Origin: Fimicolochytrium jonesii
Lineage: Eukaryota
Direction: 5' to 3'
DNA length: 64,000 nucleotides
Assembly: GCF_025526975.1 (NCBI RefSeq)
Contig: NW_026515697.1
Span: forward strand, 1-64,000
The notes beneath the pieces are model-generated. The model was not told the DNA's origin and searched no databases. It saw only the letters and a program-made list of their open reading frames with translations. The position numbers were made by a program, and so were the translations under genes. Positions 1-46,573 of the stretch are shown in pieces (the first letter of the stretch is position 1; every line of letters starts with the position of its first letter).

Positions 1-850
1 AAGGTCAACCTCTCATCGGCGTTCCATCCCCAGAGCGATGGACAAACCGAGCGGACCAATCAGATTCTTGAGCAATACCTTCGCTGCTTTTGCAACTATC
101 AACAAGATAACTGGAAGGAACTCTTGTCTTCTGCTGAGTTCTCTTACAATAACACCATCCACTCCGCCACCCAGACAACCCCCTTCTACGCCAACTATGG
201 GTTTCCATCCTCGATCCAGTCTGGCTTCCGCCACCACAACCGAATCCCTTAATCCTGCAGCCGAAGCTCGTGCCAACCATCTCAAGGAAATCCATGAACA
301 GCTTGCCACTGAGCTCAAGGAGGCCCAAGGACGCATGAAGCGCTTTGCCGATGCTAAGAGGGCACCTGGCCCAGACATGAAACCCGGGGACAGTGTCTGG
401 CTCTTACAGCGGAATCTCAAGACTCTCCGACCTTCCCAGAAACTTGATCACCGTAAGATTGGCCCCTTCACAATCACGGAGAAGATCAACTCGGTCACAT
501 ATCGCCTCAAGCTTCCCCCATCCTACAAAATTCACAACGTCTTCCATGTCTCCCTTCTTGAACCACGTTTCACCATTCCGGAGCGAACTGAGCCAGAACC
601 CACCCCACCAGAAGAAGTCGAAGGACAGGAGGAATGGATTGTGGAAGACATTCTTGACTCCCGTATTCGACGCACGCACCTTCAGTACCTCATCAAGTGG
701 CAGGGTTGGCCAAGCTCGGAGAACACATGGGAGCCAGTGGAACACCTTGCCCGATGTCAAGAGCTTGTTGCCCAGTTCCACCAAAAGTACCCCGACAAAC
801 CCCGACCAAAGCCTGCCAACATCAAAACAACATCCGGACGCCGTGGCTAA
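1..850 (+). mobile_element. Ty3/Gypsy (chromovirus) LTR retrotransposon pol 3' end: integrase core end, GPF/Y module and chromodomain; contains a frameshift
   Basis: Frame 1 from base 1 reads SSAFHPQSDGQTERTNQILEQYLRCF...EFSYNNTIHSATQTTPFYANYG (integrase). The ORF 38-850 frame continues GFHPR...KLDHRKIGPFTI...IHNVFHVSLL and EWIVEDILDSR...YLIKWQGWPSSENTWEP (chromodomain). Confidence 0.97.
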
Positions 851-862
851 AGGAGGGGGTGA
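849..862 (+). promoter_or_regulatory. Polypurine tract of the retrotransposon
   Basis: AAAGGAGGGGGTGA lies directly between the pol stop codon and the TG that starts the LTR. Confidence 0.85.
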
Positions 863-1392
863 TGTTATGGACGACGCGTCCATACCATGCGCTTACCTCA
901 TGACAGCATCCCAACAGTCAGTCAATGTCAATTCCCTGTCAAAACCTGACATCTGCCAAACCTTGCAGCCGCACGCAGCCGCGCTACCCCACACCTGCCA
1001 CTGCCTTCATTTCTCCACGCAGCCGCACGTAGCCACACCTCCCAACACTCGGCGCTTACAAACCCTTCTCCATACTTCCCCACGTACCCACCCACAGCCT
1101 CAGCGTAGCCACCCCATCCCCAGTCTTCTGTTTCTATGCTTCCCCACCCTTGGCGCTTCTCTTGGCTTCCCTCTCATTCCGTACCCTTCTGCTTCCCCAC
1201 GCTTCCCCAGCCTTCCCAGAAAAACATAAATAGCCGCCTCCCCTGAGCTCCCCACTTCCTGATCCCCCAGCAGATCAACACCAGTTCTTCCTAGTCTTGT
1301 TCTAGTTCTTGTTTCGGTCTGAATACCATTACCTGTCAACAACCTGCACCACCAGTCGCCTCTATTTCCATCGGCTCCGCCCATTCATAACA
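863..1392 (+). repeat. 3' LTR (530 bp) of the Gypsy element
   Basis: Starts TGTTATG after the PPT and ends CATAACA, a perfect 7-bp inverted terminus. The following GATAA (1393-1397) is the expected 5-bp target-site duplication. Confidence 0.9.
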
Positions 1393-2361
1393 GATAATAC
1401 TGTTGGCGCTGCGCTCGGCTAACTCCGGCTCTCCGAAGATGCAGTACGACTTGCTTCAAACCAAGCCTTTCATTGACATAGCGCAGAAACATTTGCATAA
1501 AATGCTCCTGTATGTTGACTTTGAGGTTGGTGAAGATGCTCGTAGCTGTGTACGCTGCGGTCTGTTGGCTATTTCGCATGCGGATGGGGGCGAATCCGTG
1601 AACGTTACAGTACTCTTGAACCCGTGGACGCAACTCTTGCGCGATGACCGGATTGCCGTTGTAGCCTGGATTGTTTAGCAGCTCAAATATCACACTAATG
1701 TGCTTGTCGGTGATGTTTGGGAAATCGTGTAGAGGATGATCAGCTGTGGTGGGGTGGGCAGATGTAGCAGTCAGGACATTGTTTTATGGGAAGTATACAG
1801 TATAGTGTACCTCAAAAACTCACCAAGGTAGTACTTGATAAAGAAGGTGGTGTGGCGCGCAAGGACGTGAACATTGGCGATGAACGTTGCCAGGCACTCC
1901 CTTTGAACTTGATTTTGATTATGGATGATTCGGTGAAGCGAAACCTTGGTGCTGGCATGTGTTTGCGGGCGGGGTCGTTGAACTGGTGGTGGTGGTGGTG
2001 GCGGGGGTTCATACACCAGGGATCCACCCGGTGTGCTGGGAAAACGGAAAGGGATGGGCGCGGGGAGGTTCAGTGGGCGCTGCAGACCCCTGTCCGCGGG
2101 TGAAAGCCCTCGCTGCGGCTGCTGCTGCTGCCCGTCTTCATCGCCGGAGCTCTCGCCAACCATGTCTGCAATTGCTTGGGGCAAGTGGCGATGGACAGAG
2201 GGCGGGAGCTCGAATCGTGGGGGTTGCAATGGTGTGGCTGGCAGACATATGGGCAATCGCGGGGTAACCGGAGCAACCTTCCTCCTCTTCCGCCGTGGTG
2301 TGGTTGCTCCAGTAAAGATGCCACACCACAGGTGCCCCTGGAGCGCCTGGTGTGATGACAT
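1393..2361 (-). pseudogene. Fanzor1 (TnpB/Cas12-related RNA-guided endonuclease), N-terminal WED/REC half, two exons, interrupted by the Gypsy LTR
   Basis: Exon 1 is 2361-1824, intron 1823-1744 (GTGAGT...CTGAC...CACAG), exon 2 1743-1393. Spliced protein: ...HASTKVSLHRII...FIANVHVLARHTTFFIKYYLADHPLHDFPNITDKHISVIFELLNN...VQEYCNVHGF...QQTAAYTATSIFTNLKVNIQEHFMQMFLRYVNERL. This closely matches the Spizellomyces punctatus Fanzor1 N-half as I recall it (TNLKVNVQEHFMQMLLRYIN). No RuvC domain is in the window. Confidence 0.85.
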
Positions 2362-2599
2362 GTTGGCTGTGCTGTGCCGAGACAGGTGTTGCAGGTGATT
2401 GCCGTGATGGCTGTGTGTCAAAGAACTCGCGTCAGTGCTGTGGTAAAGATTGCGGAGAGCGGCGATATACACTTTGACCCCGTCCTGTTGGGGAACGTGA
2501 GTCTCAACGCACAGAGTGTTTTTTGATATGGCGTTTAAATCAATCGATGAGGTATTTCTACGGAAATAGAAAAAAAACGGGGACACGGAACCAAATTAC
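1393..2599 (-). mobile_element. Left arm of the Fanzor-carrying transposon (putative left end near 2599)
   Basis: Minus strand reads ...TTTTGTA-CATA-GTAATTTGGTTCCGTGTCCCC, about 115 bp past the stop codon of the neighbouring gene. CATA is the published SpuFz1 TAM. Confidence 0.5.
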
Positions 2600-2714
2600 T
2601 ATGTACAAAACAAAAAATTAGAGGTTTCAAGAAGAGGTGTGAGTTCTAAATGAGGAGGCGGCGAATGTGTTCTAGAACTAGGGCGTGGTGGTGAAGCTGG
2701 AGGAGCCTTCTGTT

Positions 2715-5079
2715 CTACAGGCACAGGATCATGATCAGACACAGTAGGAATATGAGGACAAAGGCGGTGACGTAGGCCCATTCATCCGGGACTGCGTGAA
2801 GAGAAGCAAAAGGAAGGGTTAGTATTATGCAAACACTAGAACGAACGACGACCGCGATTGAACGTACCTATGAACTTGATAACCACAAACCCAAACAGCA
2901 CATAACCCAACAACATCCACTTGAACAGCCTCACATTCCTCCCGCCAATCCCAAACCACCCCACATCCTCATCCTCGCTAACCGCATACACAAACCCCGT
3001 CAAGGCAGGGTGATCCTCCGTCCCCTCCATGACCAAATGGGTATTCTCATCCCTCGACGATGGGATGGTGAACAGCACCGCGTCCTGCGTTTCGAGCGCG
3101 TTTTGTTTGAAGTAAGCGCGGATAGCGGATTTCATGAGGAAGTCGTCGTCGGAGGCGTAGTAGCGCGCGATGTAGTAAGTGGGTTCGGGGATGAAGGGGG
3201 AGGAGGGGGAGAGGGCTTGTTCGAGGAGGGGGGTGCGGCCGCGGGGGCGGTAGCGGGTGGGTGAGGGGTTGCGGCGGGTTGAGATTGAGATGGATTGGGA
3301 GGTGGAGTGGGTGTGGGAGGTTAAGGGGTTGGGGATGGCGAGGGATCGGGTGTGCGATGATAGGTCGGGTTTGGATGTGGGGAGGAGGGGTTCGGTTCCT
3401 TGGTTGTGGGTCCGCATCCAGTCCTGGGCTGTTTGTGTGGGATGGTGCTCGTTTGTGAAGCTGATGGACCGCACCCGACGGTGGATTTTGGGCGTCGTGC
3501 TTCCGGCGCGGAAGTTGGCGGTAGTCCCATGTGCGCCGTTCGTGTCTACGACGCCAGTTTGCAACGGGATGGGAGACGTGACTGAGTTAATCCCGTTCGA
3601 CTCTGCGTATGCGTCATCCATGGAGCTTCTCCTGCTTTTATCAAACTTCGGTGCTGCAAGTGCGTTCCTATCAACCGGCGACTGTAGCCTAGTATCCCTC
3701 TCGCTCAGGTCGGGCTGTGCCGAGTGCGGCCTCATCTTCCTCCGGCTAACAACCTGCTTGCCCTCCTTCGGTCGGGCTTTCCCTCCCTCTTCCTCGGTCA
3801 ATGGCACGGCGTCCTCGATCACATTCTCCACAGCATCGGGCCGCATGATCAGGTGCAGCGTTCGTTTTCGGGACCCATGTTGCCCCACTCGTAATAACCG
3901 ACTCAGTCCCGCTTTGCTCCCCTCCGAGTCATGGATGTTGACTCCGCTGCTTTTTGCGCGAGGTTTCCGCCGGAATCGGTCGAATTCTCGGCGGCCTGAC
4001 CCTACTGATCCAACGGAAGCGGTGGAGAATATTGATATCATGCTGCGAATGGAGGTCGCGGATCGGATCGAGGAGAAAGATCGCACGGAATCAAACGAGT
4101 TACGGGGGTTTTCTGCCTGCGGGCTGGTGGCTATTGCCGAGGCGGCGCTGACGACGTAGTAATGAACATCTCCGACAATTGTCATGTTGTTCAAAGGCTG
4201 TAGGAATAGAATGGGGAATGGTAAATAAAACGCAGCGAAGGGTGGTTGGATGGTTGGACGATTGGATGGCTGGAACGATACCCTGGTCGCCCCGCTCGCG
4301 ATGGGGGAAAATTGGGCTGAGTGAATGAGAGGAGTCTAGCGCCCTTGGCGCGCTTCGCTGTCACTCGCCGCAGTCCGCGCTCACTCTGCATGCCATCAAG
4401 TCAAACTCACATTCTTTGCCTTCATGCGATGTAAAAGCCCCTCCTCAGGTTGCGTTCGAAAAAGAACCTTATTGATATGATGTGCAGCATAGTAACTATA
4501 ATAAAGCCTCGTCTCATCATTCGGGTCAACAGTCGTCACCCTCGCAATGATGAAATCCTTCTCCTTCTCAATATGCATCTGTATGAGGCTGTCGAAGCCC
4601 TCCAACGTGAACGGGTCTTCATTTTCGGCTTCCAGAACGTCAACGAGCACATTCTCGTGGTCGACGGAATTCACAACCGATGCGGGGGTTGGTTTTATGG
4701 GCGCTCCCGTGAGAGGGTCGGTTTCTAAGACCTGGTCTCCAGAAGCCTCGGGTTTAGGCTGGCCGACCAGTTTGATAAACTTTGGGAATTCGGGTTCGTT
4801 GGGTGAGCCTGGGGAGAAGCAGCCGTCGTCTTCAAGAAGGTGGTCGTCGTCGTACGCAGATACTGGGAAAGGGGACTTTAGCGATGTGGGTCGGGTGATG
4901 TTGCTGTGGGGAATGTTGATGCGGACATGGCTGGCGGGTTGGTCGTCGTCGTCGTCGTCGTGGCGCCCGAATGGAAGCGCTGGCGTCGAGCCGCTCGCTG
5001 GGGAGTCGCCGGTGACGGTGAGTGAGAAAGGGGAGTCTGAGGCTTCATCGACCTCTGGGAGACGAGTGTATAGCGACAT
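2715..5079 (-). CDS. Conserved fungal protein of unknown function (DUF5092-like) with C-terminal transmembrane helices; 3 exons
   Basis: DPFTLEGF...FIIARVTTVDP...YSYYAAHHINKVLFRTQPEEGLLHRMKAKN|PLNNMTIVGDVHYY joined across intron 4410-4198. Last exon 2791-2715 encodes PDEWAYVTAFVLIFLLCLIMILCL*. Confidence 0.75.
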
Positions 5080-6716
5080 TGTGTTGAAGGCGGATGTTGG
5101 AGGCTTTCCTCGAACGTGACGGGGGCGTGCGAAAGTTGAGCTTGCGAGACTGCTTCCGCTCTGACGCCACTTTAGCTCGTCTCACAACAAAAGTCCCTAC
5201 TAGTGCTAGCGGGTGGTGGTTGACCGGCCACAAGAGTCGCTCGCTGCTTGCAGTGCCCGAGAGGAGGGACCGAGAGCGAATAGGGGTTGCGTGGGGGGGT
5301 TAGTCCGAAGCGAAGCGCCGTCTCGAAATAGCCGAAATAAGGGGATTGGGCGATTGAGCCTTGCGGGGGTGCTAAACCGATATCATATGGACAGCAGTAG
5401 GAGCCTGATAGGAGAACATGTTGGACAAGGGCATCTGGCGCAACCGCGTGCCGGGACCGCGGTATCAATCAGAGCTGCGGGGTTATACTACGTATGTACG
5501 TACTACTTACGTACTAGTGCCGACCCACATTCGCAAATGGCCGACGCAACCTCTTCGCCATCGAGCACCACTTTCTCAAAGACAAACACCCTTCTGGACA
5601 TGGACGCTGCCGAGGACACAAGGAGGTCAGCCTAGGCTCAACACTGCACGCAGGACCCCTCTGGACCAGAACCACAGCGTTCGGAAGAGGGGTTGCAAAT
5701 GGGTTATGCTGGTTCGTGAATTCGCTCACAAGGGTTGGTTGCGCCGGTAGTATTCTCTGGATGTCGTTGTTTCCTCATGCCATATTATTTTTTGCTGGAA
5801 GAGGATATCGCTCACGGCGTTTCTGTGCGGGACCAATTGACATCAGCGGGCAGGTCCTGGCGTGGCATGCCTCCCGCACTTGTGGGCTCTGATTGACACA
5901 AACAAATGTGAGAAAGCCGTCCGCTTCGAATGCTATGTATATGTACATTAGATTTTGATGATGGATAGACGTTTTCGAACGCCGTCCCTTCATTCCATGA
6001 CCTTAATAACGAACATGGCAGATATGTAGGCCGACGGATTTTCGTCCCACGACATGGGATCACCTGTTATAATTTGAAACAATTTACGTCTCATCGACAG
6101 TGTAGTACGTAGTGGCGGGGAACATCCAGATCGTGCATGAATCGAGGGTGTCGCCGTACGTTTCGAGCATCCAAAAAGGAATCCCAAAATCATGTTGCCC
6201 AACTGTGAAACAACGAGCGTAAATTATGACCTCAATTGGGGGCAATCCCGTGGCTCCTGTGAACCTCGTGTACCCACGGGCAGTGACGGCCGTTTGGGAA
6301 CAAAGGCTCCGAAAATCTTATTAGCTTTCAAATGATTCCAGGCCGGCGAGAGAGAAGACTCGCCCAGGTTCAATCGGCCGCCAGCAGGATGGATGGCATG
6401 CTCAACGTGACATGCGTGGGGGGGGGGGTTCATGAATTGATGGTTTGACCTGACCGTAATGAAGAAGTTCTAATAGAGAACCGTGAATTTGGACGTGGAA
6501 GCCGCACATGCCACGACTACTCTCTCACCTTCCGCAAAGACTCCCGCCGCCCGTGGGAAAAAGCAACTTGCCCAAACCAACAAACACGACGTAAGGCCCT
6601 CATTCTCCTCGTCCAGCACAATACAGTACAATCCTCCGGTGCAATACACCCACAATATCGATACTACTCCATATAGCCTCGTTTGCCTCTTTGCTATCCT
6701 CATTCTCTAGTGTGTT

Positions 6717-9700
6717 ATGCCCTTAGCCACCGTCGCTGCTGTGCGACCGGAACTCGACCCCATTCTCGCGGCCGACAACGCATACTTGTTCCATCTGCAG
6801 CAGCTATACCCATCCAAGCACGACGTACACCCGCAGCAGCCCACTCACAGTCTTCTCCCGGAAATCACCTCGCCCACAGCCCTGCCGCCAGTCATGGACA
6901 CCGTTCGCAACGGCGCTGGGGCCGGTGGGGACCTGAATGCAACGTCCCAGGCGCGCAGCCCCAGTCCCGACGTCCCCAGCGTCGAAATTCTCTTGCAGAA
7001 TGTTATCGCCGAGCGCAACGCACTGCGGCTGCAAAACGATCAACTATGGAAAATCATCGAAAAGCAACGGCTGATAATAGCCCAGCTGCAACAGGCCGCT
7101 CATGCCCCACCGGCGCCGCCGGTATCGAGCCAGTCCACACCGGCTTCGGCAATCGACCTCGGTGCTACTTTACCGCCCCCCGAACCTGGGACCGTGTCGA
7201 GGAAACCGTCCGCACGGCGCAACAGAGCGAGTTCGGAACGGCCGCCGAGCTCGTCACATGAACCTGATATGTTGATCAGGGCGAAATTGCAGTTAGAACA
7301 CTCAGAAGGTTCCACCCCGACAACACGGCGACGGTCATTGTCGGACCCCCATAATGCGAGTAACGTTCTCACTCTACCTGCCATTCTCCAAAACGGGGTG
7401 CCGAGAAGTACTGGGTCGGCAACGAAGCGTGACCGCGACAGGATAACGCCAACATTACCGCCGGTGACGGGAAGCATCGGGAGCATGGGCAACATGTCGG
7501 GCCTTCAGCGCAAACCGTCAAACTCAAACTCTGCCGTGAGATCCCCGCTGGCCGCTGGAAGCAATGGCAGCTGGCATGGCTCCCAAGACGATGGATCTGG
7601 CAGCAGGGCTGCCAGCGCCCGGGAACGTGAACGTTCGAGGAGATCTCAGTATCTGCCGTCGGCCGAAGATGGTGGGGAAGTGGGTAATGAAAACGGAAAA
7701 GGCGCACTGAAACCACATGCGCCAAATGACAGCCGTACCCGCCAAAGATCGCACTCTGGCCGTCAGCAACGCACACGGCGGAATTCCGAGGAATCGTCCC
7801 AACACAACGAGACTCTTGGAGTCGATAGCCTTGAATTTTTCGGGAAGGAGAATGGTGTTGAATCCAGAGCGAAACGTGAGAATGGCCACGGAAAACCAAT
7901 GCAGCAAAAGGTTCAGCAACCGGAATCAAATAAAGCAGCTATCGGTGCGGAGCTATCGGAGCAAGGGGGACCGTCTTCTTTCGGAATGCCTACAATCAGA
8001 GTGGATGGCAGCATCGACGAGCCAAGCACGTCAGAAGCGCCGGAAGGAATTACGCAAAAGGAGAAACCGAACTTGCTAGTCGCTCAAGGAAGCACAGGCG
8101 CATCTGCTCTGTCATTGACAATGTCTGGGGACTCACTAGGCAAACGCGGTGAAAACGAGGGGCGGGCGTCCAAGTGCGACGAGAGGAAGTTCCTGGAGTC
8201 TCCAGCGGACATTCGAATCGCTGTGACGGGTTCCCAGCTCAAACTCAACGAGAAAGGTCGTGAAGTCCTCAGCTTCACACTAACGATCCGAAACCCCACC
8301 AACGAAGATCTGTGGAAAATAGAAAAGGCCTACGCGGATTTCCTGCAACTGGACACAAAGCTCAAAAGCTCTACAACCAAAGCGGTCTCGAGCAAAATCG
8401 GGAAACTCCCCGATAAAGCACTCTTCACCACACATTCACCGACCAAAAACGATCAGCGGAAAGTGCAACTCGAGCTGTACACTCAGAACGTGCTCGAGCT
8501 ATGCAGGCATAGTCCGGAGATGATTGCGTTCTTGTCTACGAACGTGCTTGACGCTGCTAAGCAGTCGGCCGGTGAGACGGGCGCAAACGTCTCTGGCACC
8601 ATCAAGGAGGGATACCTGTTCAAGAAGGGGAAGAACTTTGGCGCGTGGAAATCCCGTTTCTTCGTCTTAAGATCGGGAGGTGCATTCGAGTACTTTGAGT
8701 CTCAGAAGGACCGCACGAGCTTGTTGGGTGGTATCAAGCTCAAATACGTGTTTGTGTCCCGACAATCGGGCACGGCACCGCTGGATGGGTTACCGACCAG
8801 CGATGACGGGACAGACACGCAGTCTGGGAATGACACGGATTATCGGCATGCGTTTATGTTGACGGAGTACAAGAAGAGCTGCTTTGCACCGGAGGCGAAG
8901 GAGAAGGGTGGCGAGCAGTTCTCGGAGAGTAGGGTGATCAGCCGGCATATTCTGTGCGCGGAGAATGATGAGGAGAGGGATGAGTGGGTTCGTCTCATCG
9001 CGAGGGAGATCAAGTTGGTACGGCCAGACACGACTAGGAACGGACGGAAACCGGTTGACGAACGAGGCGAGGTGGCCGAGCCCTCGCAGCAACAGCAGCC
9101 CGGCCCAACGATCGAAGACCGCGCACAGCCGATAGATATCAAAATGGCACCCGGACGGGATGCAAGGGTCCAGGACATCCAGCAGGAAGATCCCTTCAGC
9201 GCGCCATCACAGCCCTCTACCGGGTTCGGCCAATCTCCGGACGAAGCACCGGTCCAATCCGAGACTCCGGAAGAACATCCCGTAGCGCCACGACGGACCG
9301 CCTCGATCGCGATCATGTCCACCTCGAACGAAGCGCTTTCGTTGGCGCACGCTATGGGCGGCGGACGCGCGGGAACGACGTCCTCCTCATCACCGTCCAA
9401 AGGACGCACCCGCAATTTCGTTGACGACAACGAGCGCGTGATGATGCAGGCCGAACCTCCACCGCTGCTCTCGCCCGAGGAGAGTCGCGAACGGGGCCAA
9501 AGCGCGGCCGTCAACATCCCGCAGGCGGGCTCCAAAGCTACCGATAAGAAAAGCAAGCGGATCACCACGTTCAACTGGGGGAAGAAGAGTAAAGACCAGC
9601 TCTCGTCGTCGAATTCGCGGTCGCAGACTTTGAATGACCGCGGGCGACGCGTGTTTGGGGTTCCGTTGGATCAGGCGGTTGCTATCAGCCGCGTGAGGGA

Positions 9701-11062
9701 GGACTTGCAGCTGCCTGCTGTGTTGTACAGGTGTATAGAATATCTGGACGCGAAGAATGCGAATGAGGAGGAAGGGATATATAGGTTGAGCGGGAGCTCG
9801 AGCGTTATTCAGGGGTTGAAGGCTGCCTTTGACGCTGGTAAGTGGGTGCCGTATCATCACTTTTTGAGGTCCATATGATTTTACTGACCTCGTTTCCTGC
9901 AATGACAGAGGGCGATGTGGATCTCCTAGGCAGCCAGCAATTCTACGACGTCCACGCAGTCGCCGGCCTCCTTAAACTCTACCTGCGCGAGCTCCCCTCC
10001 CCCGTCCTCACAAAAGAACTCCAACGCTCCTTCCTGCACGTCATGGACCTCGCCGACCGCGAGGAACGCATCTTCGAGCTGGCTCGACTAGTCGCCCTCC
10101 TCCCGATCCCCAACTACACTCTGCTTAAAATCCTCATGGCGCATCTCGTCCGTGTCGTGCGCCGCGCGGATATCAACAAGATGAATATCCGCAACGTCGG
10201 GATCGTGTTCAGTCCGACTGTGGGTGTGCCTGCGGGTGTTTTCACACTGATGATGGCGGAATATGCGTCGGTGTTTTGGTGGGATGGGCGGGAGGAGACG
10301 AGGAATGAACGGATATTTAATACCGAGCCTACGGAGCCGATGGAGGTTGAAGCTCAACACCAGCAGCACCATGGAGGCGCCGAGGAACAACCGACGTCAC
10401 CTACACCAACGTCGCCGCCCGCGTCGATACTGTCGGAACCCATCCCCGTAGAAGACACGTCGGACCTCCCCCAGCCGAAACGCCGGCAACCCAACTCTGC
10501 CAAACGACGACAACGCCAGAACGCAATGATGGCCGGCCAGGCCCTCATGAACGGGTCCAACAACCCCGGAGGCGACGAGCCCACCCACAACAACCCAAAC
10601 AACAACAACATCTACGCCATTCCCACCCAACCCGTCCTCATCGACGCTGGAGGCCCGGATTCCATCAACAGCACCTCCGCCCCCCAACAACCAGGGGGCG
10701 GTAGCTACCACAGCACCACCCGCCACTCCCGCACCCGCCCCCTCAGCACCGGCTCCAAACGCGGGCGCGAAGGGTCCGCCAAACAATCCCAATCCTATCC
10801 AAACGAAACCACCGACCTCTCCACCCAATTCCACCGCACCTCCGCCAGCCTCCCGCCCGACCAAGCTTCCATCAACGAGGTCTTTGTCGACGGCGAGGAG
10901 GAGGTTGAGGCGGACGACGAAGTGGGCGATGAGGAGGAGGATGACGGGGATCATGGCGAAGAGGAGGAGATGGATGTGGATGGGGATGGGAGTCGTGGGC
11001 ATCCGTCGAGGGCGAGGACGTATGATGCGTATTTTGGTGAGGGGGGGGAGTTGTTTCGGTGA
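6717..11062 (+). CDS. BEM3: PX-PH-RhoGAP protein (Bem3-like Rho GTPase-activating protein)
   Basis: PX (WKIEKAYADFLQLDTKL...LPDK), PH (KEGYLFKKGKNFGAWKSRFFVL) and RhoGAP (VFGVPL...EEGIYRLSGS; DVHAVAGLLKLYLRELP; NKMNIRNVGIVFSPT). One intron near 9838-9908. Confidence 0.9.
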
Positions 11063-44897: not shown

Positions 44898-46369
44898 AAT
44901 CCGATTGATGTTTTGCACTCGCGGGCTAGGGCTGATCGCGGGAGGACTCCCAAGAACATGCGGCCGGACGTAGGGGGCGAGGACCCACAACCCACCCACC
45001 ACCCGGCCCGCCCGTCGCCGCCGCAGCCAGCAGATCCTTCTTTCAGCTGTATATAGGCCGTCCCTTGACTCGCCAAACTCCGCATGCCATCGTCGCATGG
45101 CCACTCACTGTAACACACCCAACGCCTCGCCCGTCGTCACTCGCCGGTCCCAATTCATGTATCTTTTTTGCAACCGTTTTGTCATCTTGATATCAGTCCA
45201 TGTATCTGTAACTTAAGAACTCATAAGAAAATGCTTTTGCATCTCTGTAAATCCCAATTTCCATCCATTCAGTGGAACTTTCGACACATCTCATGCGCAT
45301 GTGTCAATTTTACTGGGTCAAGTGTTTTCGTATTTGGTGGTGTTCCACCGATCGATGTTTGTCCCCATTGATATGTGGCCGACCCTATGTGTGTTGCAAT
45401 CTGGGCAGGGGGTTGAGCGGTTCGTTTGGGAACATCAGGTGCACGGGTTGACTCCGAGGTAGTCTATAACAAGCACCGGCAAAAGGTGGCTGACGGAGAT
45501 TGGGGCTAGCCGGGTCTTTAGTTAGACGGAGCGTCGACTAAAGATGGCACAGGTCAGCGCCGACCGAGCTATGTGCAGGAGGAGCAAAACCCATGCCGAC
45601 ATGACCTGCTCTCCCAACACAAGTTCCAACTTGGACACAGATGGACACACCTCTCTTCCGCGACAGGCTCAATCATCCTCATTCGTATCTGTACGTGTTG
45701 TGCAGCCGTTGCCACACTAAATGACGGAAAAGTCAAAGTCCTTCTGTCTTGCTGCTTGAATTCTGGATGAATTTGTTATGTTGTTTTTGAACATTCCATC
45801 GCAGGTGCTCCATGTACAAATTGATTGCCCAACACAGCGTACCAAGAAGCTGCAAATGTAGTAGCATCTGAACGAGAGTCTTACGCTGCGGACATGGATT
45901 GATGGGCCTTGCTGTCAGACACCGGGAGACCTGGGCCGACGAGAAGAGCCACCGGCTTATCGAATTGTCGCGGATTGGCCTCACCCCTTGGGTGCTGGGA
46001 ACCCGTTTAAGATCCCTATTGTGTACAAAAATAGTTGAGCCAGTTTGTCGAAATCCCTGGGTGCCAACACCCACGTTCCGATAAACATGAACAAGGTTGG
46101 TCGAGCCTACCAGCAACAAGCAGGACCTGGCTTTGACATGTCGCTGTTCGGAATGTATACCAACTCGGCGCACATCCCTCAAGCTAGCAAACCTTCTCCA
46201 GCTGGCAGATCAGTACATCGTTGACCCGGCGCTGTATACTAATAGATTTGAATGAATTTGATGCCTGCTCACATCGTGAAACGCTCATTGCATATGTCCC
46301 TGCCATGTAAACACATATACACGTTATGTGGGAATCGTTCAGCCAAGATCTGGCAGACTATCTGTCATC

Positions 46370-46573
46370 CTTGGTTGACGGCACTGACGCAACCAAAACA
46401 AATCAAGAGACTCCATCTGGCTGGCTAGCGACGGGCTCACTCTAGGTTGACGGCATTGACGCAATAGCAAAGCAAGAGACTCCGCCTGGCTGGCTAGCGA
46501 CGGACTTACTCTTGGTTGACCGCATTGGCGCATCGAGATCGAGGCAACGAGACTCTTCTGGCTGGCTAGGGAT
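46370..46573. repeat. Three diverged tandem repeats of about 70 bp
   Basis: Units start at 46370, 46442 and 46511 with the pattern CT(T/A)GGTTGAC.GCA.TG.CGCA-variable-GAGACTC...CTGGCTGGCTAG. Confidence 0.9.

Follow-up and report, generated by a model that had tools for sequence, protein, structure and literature searches.

A broken, intron-bearing Fanzor1 copy at a Ty3/Gypsy LTR in Fimicolochytrium jonesii and its full-length sister gene models

Background

The closest described system is Spu-1 of Spizellomyces punctatus with its protein SpuFz1 (Bao and Jurka 2013, PMC3627910; Saito et al. 2023, PMC10432273; PDB 8GKH and 9CEU-9CEZ). Spu-1 is present in dozens of copies, many of them partial, and Ty3/Gypsy elements are inserted within the gene. 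SpuFz1 is an intron-less single ORF of 638 aa with the order WED-REC-RuvC-zinc finger and a D-E-D triad, and its contacts with the TAM are R96, Q129, Q130, N133, R291 and Y345 (Saito et al. 2023). TIRs, a TA duplication, a CATA TAM and an omegaRNA have been shown for Spu-1, elements of this type having TIRs of about 30 nt and a CA ahead of the left end, and the native role of Fanzor was left open by the same authors. Two other proteins, PpFz1 of Parasitella parasitica (9CF0) and GtFz1 of Guillardia theta (9CER), have the Fanzor1 fold in common with the family described here, at 26% and 18% identity respectively. Introns and NLS are common in Fanzor genes (Jiang 2023), and a TDG motif in the WED domain was given as a Fanzor1 feature by Yoon et al. 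(2023, PMC10711439).

The locus compared with these systems lies near the beginning of a 64,000-nt stretch of Fimicolochytrium jonesii DNA (contig NW_026515697.1, positions 1 to 64,000), hereafter the window. The F. jonesii family resembles Spu-1 in its dozens of copies, many partial, and in the Ty3/Gypsy insertion within the gene, and it shares with SpuFz1 the fold, the domain order, the triad and the residues Q129, Q130 and Y345. It differs by having introns and a disordered N-terminus of 130 aa, by a REC loop that is five residues shorter and lacks R96, and by the replacements N133 to Ala and N385 to Gly. The locus is read here as a broken, intron-bearing Fanzor1 copy that is likely dead, with sisters that are likely omegaRNA-guided nucleases and have a predicted TAM unlike that of SpuFz1, and this reading is considered probable, with good confidence.

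Results

Gene structure and Fanzor1 identity

The features of the locus are given in Table 1. The two exons join to 296 stop-free codons, from the ATG at 2361 to 1394. A sequence-only reading of the window had already connected ORFs 1771-2586 and 1385-1693 by removal of the 80-nt GT-AG intron. Of the 22 F. jonesii gene models with KYYL, 19 have the predicted junction, in which AD follows directly. Among the other three, P0088 enters the same intron, a read-through identical to that of the unspliced window ORF, one has six extra residues and one skips ahead. Thirteen frame-preserving GT-AG pairs were present in the range tested, and GTGAGT together with CAG was found only in the pair at 1823-1744; the 12 others keep the frame open but do not combine this donor with this acceptor. 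A CTGAC branch-like motif is located about 30 nt upstream of the acceptor, and an environmental contig has a 5-nt deletion within the intron and none in its exon part.

Table 1. Positions of the features of the Fanzor1 locus and its surroundings in the window
Feature	Position	Strand	Remarks
End of retrotransposon pol (integrase core tail, Tf2-type SH3, chromodomain)	1..850	+	Pfam
Polypurine tract AAAGGAGGGGG	849..859	+	directly before the LTR
3' LTR of Ty3/Gypsy element, 530 nt	863..1392	+	7-nt inverted termini TGTTATG...CATAACA; abuts the Fanzor frame
GATAA, predicted target-site duplication	1393..1397	+	from sequence; second copy would fall beyond the window
Fanzor1 exon 2, REC domain	1393..1743	-	ends ...QRQQYY at the LTR
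TAM-reading helix QQTAA	1553..1567	-	SpuFz1 Q129 and Q130 kept, N133 replaced by Ala
REC loop NNPGYNGNP	1649..1675	-	lacks the TAM-anchoring Arg (R96)
Predicted spliceosomal intron, 80 nt, phase 1	1744..1823	-	GTGAGT...CTGAC...CAG
Fanzor1 exon 1	1824..2361	-	ATG 2361; Pro/Gln/Arg-rich extension, WED strand TKVSL, first REC helix to FFIKYYL
Basic cluster PRRKRRK	2278..2298	-	from sequence
5' region common to another copy	2362..2444	-	candidate left boundary 2444
Alternative candidate left end CATAGT (weak)	2598..2603	-	240 nt upstream of the ATG
DUF5092 host gene	2715..5079	-	exons at 5079-2748; Pfam domain split around a long low-complexity insert

Exon 1 aligned over its full length with the sister models, which run on past the end of exon 2 into RVRQF and then to RuvC. 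Read-through models indicated more introns in the family after P0029 residues ~354, 423, 572 and perhaps 639, positions that rest on one or two models each and on two rows of Table S2 of Yoon et al. (2023). The genes of the family have at least one predicted intron and likely three to five.

Searched alone against the PDB, exon 2 matched SpuFz1 (8GKH) with E 1.1e-14, and the next match had E 0.056. This agrees with the earlier assignment to the WED/REC half of Fanzor1, and the motifs quoted there as colinear with SpuFz1 were all present and in order. Matches of exon 2 to ferrochelatase and APLP1 (E>0.05) were regarded as chance. Exon 1 alone had no PDB match at E<=10, because about 130 of its 179 residues belong to the family-specific low-complexity extension. 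Neither exon was assigned to a Pfam family, nor were 19 of 20 sisters, the remaining one having a sub-threshold match; one precomputed Pfam accession, PF26935, is common to the family and SpuFz1, as an accession alone. The window peptide is identical to the gene model P0029 (KAI8821362) at 267 of 292 positions (91%) and to SpuFz1 at 58 of 156.

The structure of P0029, predicted from a 40-row alignment (mean pLDDT 79, below 50 for residues 1-128), matched 8GKH in Foldseek with E 2.9e-53 and a TM-score of 0.87 by target. Over 581 aligned residues it superimposed on SpuFz1 with Z 38.6, rmsd 3.3 and 45% identity, whereas Z was 34 for PpFz1, 24 for GtFz1 and at most 11 for Cas12 and TnpB. Siblings continuing into a non-RuvC domain, or the lack of a structure match, had been named beforehand as results that would count against the identification; RuvC was found in the siblings, and the Foldseek match is the one given above.

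A quick 32-row tree placed the window copy within a clade of F. jonesii sequences (SH-aLRT 100) and outside that of S. punctatus, with a protein of Gaertneriomyces sp. JEL0708 (HDU85_005947, P0035) as sister to the F. jonesii clade (SH-aLRT 99). This uncharacterised Fanzor1 is 53-56% identical to the family and has the triad and the zinc finger in common with it, but it keeps the loop Arg, has His at position 133 and lacks a long N-terminal extension. That the stretch has Fanzor1 ancestry is virtually certain.

Sister gene models in F. jonesii

A search for longer relatives gave 20 matches among 155 candidates, all of them F. jonesii gene models with 61-96% identity. The F. jonesii set, pooled from several searches, comprised 38 automatic gene models. 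All three catalytic motifs (D-E-D, with a DPG-type first motif and the Glu before the zinc finger) were found in 11 of these, and two, P0029 (761 aa) and P0030 (693 aa), also have the WED start and a C4 zinc finger; intact siblings, which the sequence-only reading had thought possible, are thus represented by full-length models. Among themselves the full-length models share 88-95% identity. P0029 carries the equivalents of SpuFz1 D383/E541/D606, Y345 and R291. It also has 10 private changes, one of which alters the conserved [TS][TS] pair preceding the zinc finger, and its activity is therefore not assured. P0030 is without the first ~69 residues and has 13 private changes.

The motif of Bao and Jurka, D-X(125,275)-[TS]-[TS]-X-X-C4-X(5,50)-RD, was matched by P0030, P0013 and P0031 among seven proteins tested; P0029 and P0027 each failed the motif as written through single private changes. 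The WED motif is TDG in P0010, P0029 and P0030 and TNG in most other copies. Loci related to P0013 were not confirmed in metagenome contigs (0 of 91 pattern matches) or viral contigs (0 of 1), and a 20-nt pattern from the 5' region gave 0 matches.

The F. jonesii gene model P0059 (EV422DRAFT_623327) fuses a Fanzor fragment to an N-terminal part that looks, by eye, like a tyrosine-recombinase-type protein; the gene caller has probably drawn an adjacent or nested element into the model. A Fanzor1-like protein assigned to a Bacteroidota bacterium, P0070, comes from a 3.3-kb contig that is probably a mis-binned eukaryotic one.

TAM-contact residues, N-terminal extension and selection

Compared with SpuFz1, the family has kept Q129, Q130 and Y345, has R291 in some copies, and has Gly at 96 and Ala at 133. 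In 23 of 24 family loops the sequence is PGYNGN, with no Arg or Lys, and in one it is PRYNGN. Outside relatives have Arg or Lys at positions 90-98 in 49 of 50 cases, and at 96 itself in 34 of 50; these 50, of which 12 are S. punctatus paralogues, are the sequences covering the loop out of 181 fetched. The loss of R96 and N133 with retention of Q129, Q130 and Y345 leads to the prediction of a shorter or different TAM, and the TAM of the F. jonesii branch is likely to be altered relative to that of SpuFz1, to judge from these residues. The REC-loop Arg is described as conserved in three structures, PpFz1 and GtFz1 both keeping it, without being made a formal criterion of Fanzor1 (Xu et al. 2024).

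One outside relative, P0083 (660 aa, 40-42% identical), has no basic loop residue, with Thr at 96 and His at 133. It may represent an independent loss of the basic residue.

The N-terminus of about 130 aa is rich in Pro, Gln and Arg, contains a basic cluster and is disordered in the P0029 model (pLDDT below 50). The longest N-terminal extension among the 50 aligned relatives is 46 aa, and the best 150 representative matches included no relative from elsewhere with the 130-aa extension. The PRRKRRK cluster, present in 16 of 38 F. jonesii models, is a candidate NLS. Directly upstream of the ATG (window 2362-2375) there is a short repeat of CACAG, which appears expanded in P0018.

For the analysis of selection, 45 family sequences were mapped on P0029, with conserved sites defined independently of the family. 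Variants common to at least three copies were found 15 times at 202 conserved sites and 71 times at 387 variable sites (p 0.002), and p was between 0.0002 and 0.003 across three thresholds and two row sets. Private variants showed no difference (71 at conserved against 165 at variable sites, p 0.25). The avoidance of conserved sites by shared variants indicates that the protein was under purifying selection while the family spread. The comparison was made on protein models, not DNA, and kinship makes the copies non-independent. The pattern is that of lineages apparently selected for protein function during spread and decaying after insertion. Two environmental contigs showed a weak synonymous bias (5 of 10).

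The changed residues could also mean that the family is Fanzor1 by descent and a poor cutter, binding omegaRNA and perhaps DNA, with the disordered N-terminus serving as an effector or partner-binding tail, and being retained for this role. The basic residue missing from 23 of 24 loops and the extension unique to the family fit such a role, as does the mutation R85A of the equivalent Arg, which abolishes GtFz1 activity (Xu et al. 2024). Against it stand the retention of the triad, the zinc finger and Y345, the scarcity of shared variants at conserved sites, and P0083, a protein from outside the family that has no basic residue at this place either and looks complete. The Arg contact with the TAM was moreover called non-base-specific (Xu et al. 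2024), so another basic residue could stand in. A family of poor cutters is judged unlikely on this evidence, and the sisters are read as likely nucleases with a changed TAM. It is rather unlikely that the change went so far that the branch, having lost the Arg loop and the base-reading Asn before its expansion, is still active and cuts with a much relaxed TAM.

Truncation by a retrotransposon

The Fanzor homology stops at 1393 because a 3' LTR adjoins it, the terminal CA of the LTR falling exactly at the base where the homology ends. The Fanzor frame meets a stop at 1387-1385 (codon 298), two codons into the LTR. The sequence-only reading had described the copy as broken, and this was borne out; the LTR as the cause was not part of that description. 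The start of the LTR is supported by three environmental contigs whose match with the window starts at 862-863.

Lying antisense to the Fanzor gene, the retroelement has the features of a Tf2-like Ty3/Gypsy chromovirus: an integrase with SH3 and C-terminal chromodomain (SH3_Tf2-1 E 9e-22, Chromo E 5e-19 in Pfam), a polypurine tract and a TG...CA LTR. It disrupts the Fanzor gene and is not part of the Fanzor system; the window contains its 3' end alone. Ty3/Gypsy elements make target-site duplications of 5 nt, the length of the predicted GATAA. The integrase reading frame changes from 1 to 2 at about position 200 (window 1-250), and either the retrotransposon itself is damaged or there is an assembly error near 200.

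Within the window, the C-terminal half of P0029 matched nothing at an E-value below 0.75. The RuvC triad and the zinc finger are not in frame in the window copy, and the window contains no RuvC, zinc finger or omegaRNA; no second copy, TIR pair or second LTR was found in it. With a stop in the LTR and no RuvC half in the window, the copy is unable to make a nuclease: any product would end two codons into the LTR, without the nuclease domain. The remaining gene and the omegaRNA are predicted to lie past the 5' LTR, to the left of window position 1. With its front 296 codons severed by the retrotransposon, the window copy is almost certainly dead.

The junction at 1392/1393 might instead be a deletion end, a rearrangement or an assembly join of two repeats. 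Room for this is left by the second LTR and target-site duplication falling beyond the window, by the broken integrase frame near 200, and by the environmental reads and contigs (small shares of two DNA metagenome runs), which leave 1316-1469 with the LTR junction uncovered. It is very unlikely all the same, because the CA with its 7-nt inverted terminus coincides precisely with the end of the Fanzor homology, and Ty3 elements are reported to be nested in the same way in Fanzor genes of S. punctatus (Saito et al. 2023). That the Fanzor fragment is cargo carried by the Ty3 retrotransposon is suggested by adjacency alone and is extremely improbable.

Discussion

The preferred reading, a Fanzor1 copy cut in two by an insertion and sisters that likely still cut, can be extended by analogy with Spu-1. 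The gene would ride on a non-autonomous DNA transposon whose transposase acts in trans, and the nuclease would load an RNA made of the right end of the element and about 15 nt of flank. The RNP would cut the empty site left after excision of the element, and repair from the sister chromatid would restore it. Such restorative homing was shown for bacterial TnpB and has been proposed for Fanzor (2026 review).

The family had been called distinct and possibly undescribed. It is distinct, with 45% identity to SpuFz1 and a clade of its own with the Gaertneriomyces protein, but not undescribed, as Table S2 of Yoon et al. (2023) holds 33 F. jonesii Fanzor HMM hits. The 32 of these rows compared are all C-terminal fragments of up to 410 aa, and the accessions of P0022, P0024, P0025 and P0026 are included; the full-length models KAI8821362 and KAI8822135 are among five accessions not found in the table. 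F. jonesii is not named in the main text of that paper, nor was Fimicolochytrium found in the searchable supplement files of Saito et al. (2023). Two supplements of Jiang (2023) gave no Fimicolochytrium match, a weak blank since Spizellomyces is also absent from them. No paper characterising the family was found in a literature search that had subscription papers and bioRxiv supplements outside its range. The F. jonesii Fanzor1 family is catalogued but unstudied, and fossils like the broken copy have been reported before. Fanzor introns and Ty3 insertions in Fanzor1 genes are already published; the changed TAM-contact residues had been missed in the sequence-only reading.

The value of the window copy is that it leads to a sister family, so far uncharacterised, whose full-length gene models are public. 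At 45% identity to SpuFz1 the family allows a residue-by-residue comparison, and two of the six residues through which the solved structure reads or holds the TAM are missing from it. It offers a natural experiment on changes of TAM recognition within Fanzor1 and on whether the Arg is required. If active with a looser TAM it would be a candidate editing enzyme, and KAI8821362 would be a natural, broadly targetable eukaryotic RNA-guided nuclease. Many copies with differing flanks would let the omegaRNA, the guide boundary and the insertion preference be read from the genome.

Element ends and neighbouring genes

The position of the DUF5092 gene places the left end of the Fanzor element between 2362 and 2714. 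This host gene matches F. jonesii EV422DRAFT_542466 with 100% identity across 89% of the query, against 58% for the next best match, and is conserved across chytrids. One 151-nt environmental contig (depth 2) matches 2376-2444 with 0 differences and then diverges, and its diverging end has no match elsewhere in the window. As for the alternative end, the left end of Spu-1 has the same six letters, CATAGT, 242 nt before the ATG (Saito et al. 2023 supplement, PMC10432273); 19 CATAGT-type matches were seen in the window against 15.3 expected, which is near chance. The upstream parts of sister gene models had no match further than about 25 nt before the ATG, folding of 2362-2605, with no shuffle control, gave nothing interpretable, Rfam gave 0 matches in window 1-3000, and no transposase family was found in the 27 scanned of the 43 window ORFs of at least 200 aa.

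A PX-PH-RhoGAP host gene is located at 6711-11062, and the other host genes of the window include glycogen phosphorylase, RRP4, a helicase, Rrn7/TAF1B and an FAD oxidoreductase. At 46365-46533 there are three imperfect tandem copies, 75-88% alike, with a spacing of about 69-72 nt.
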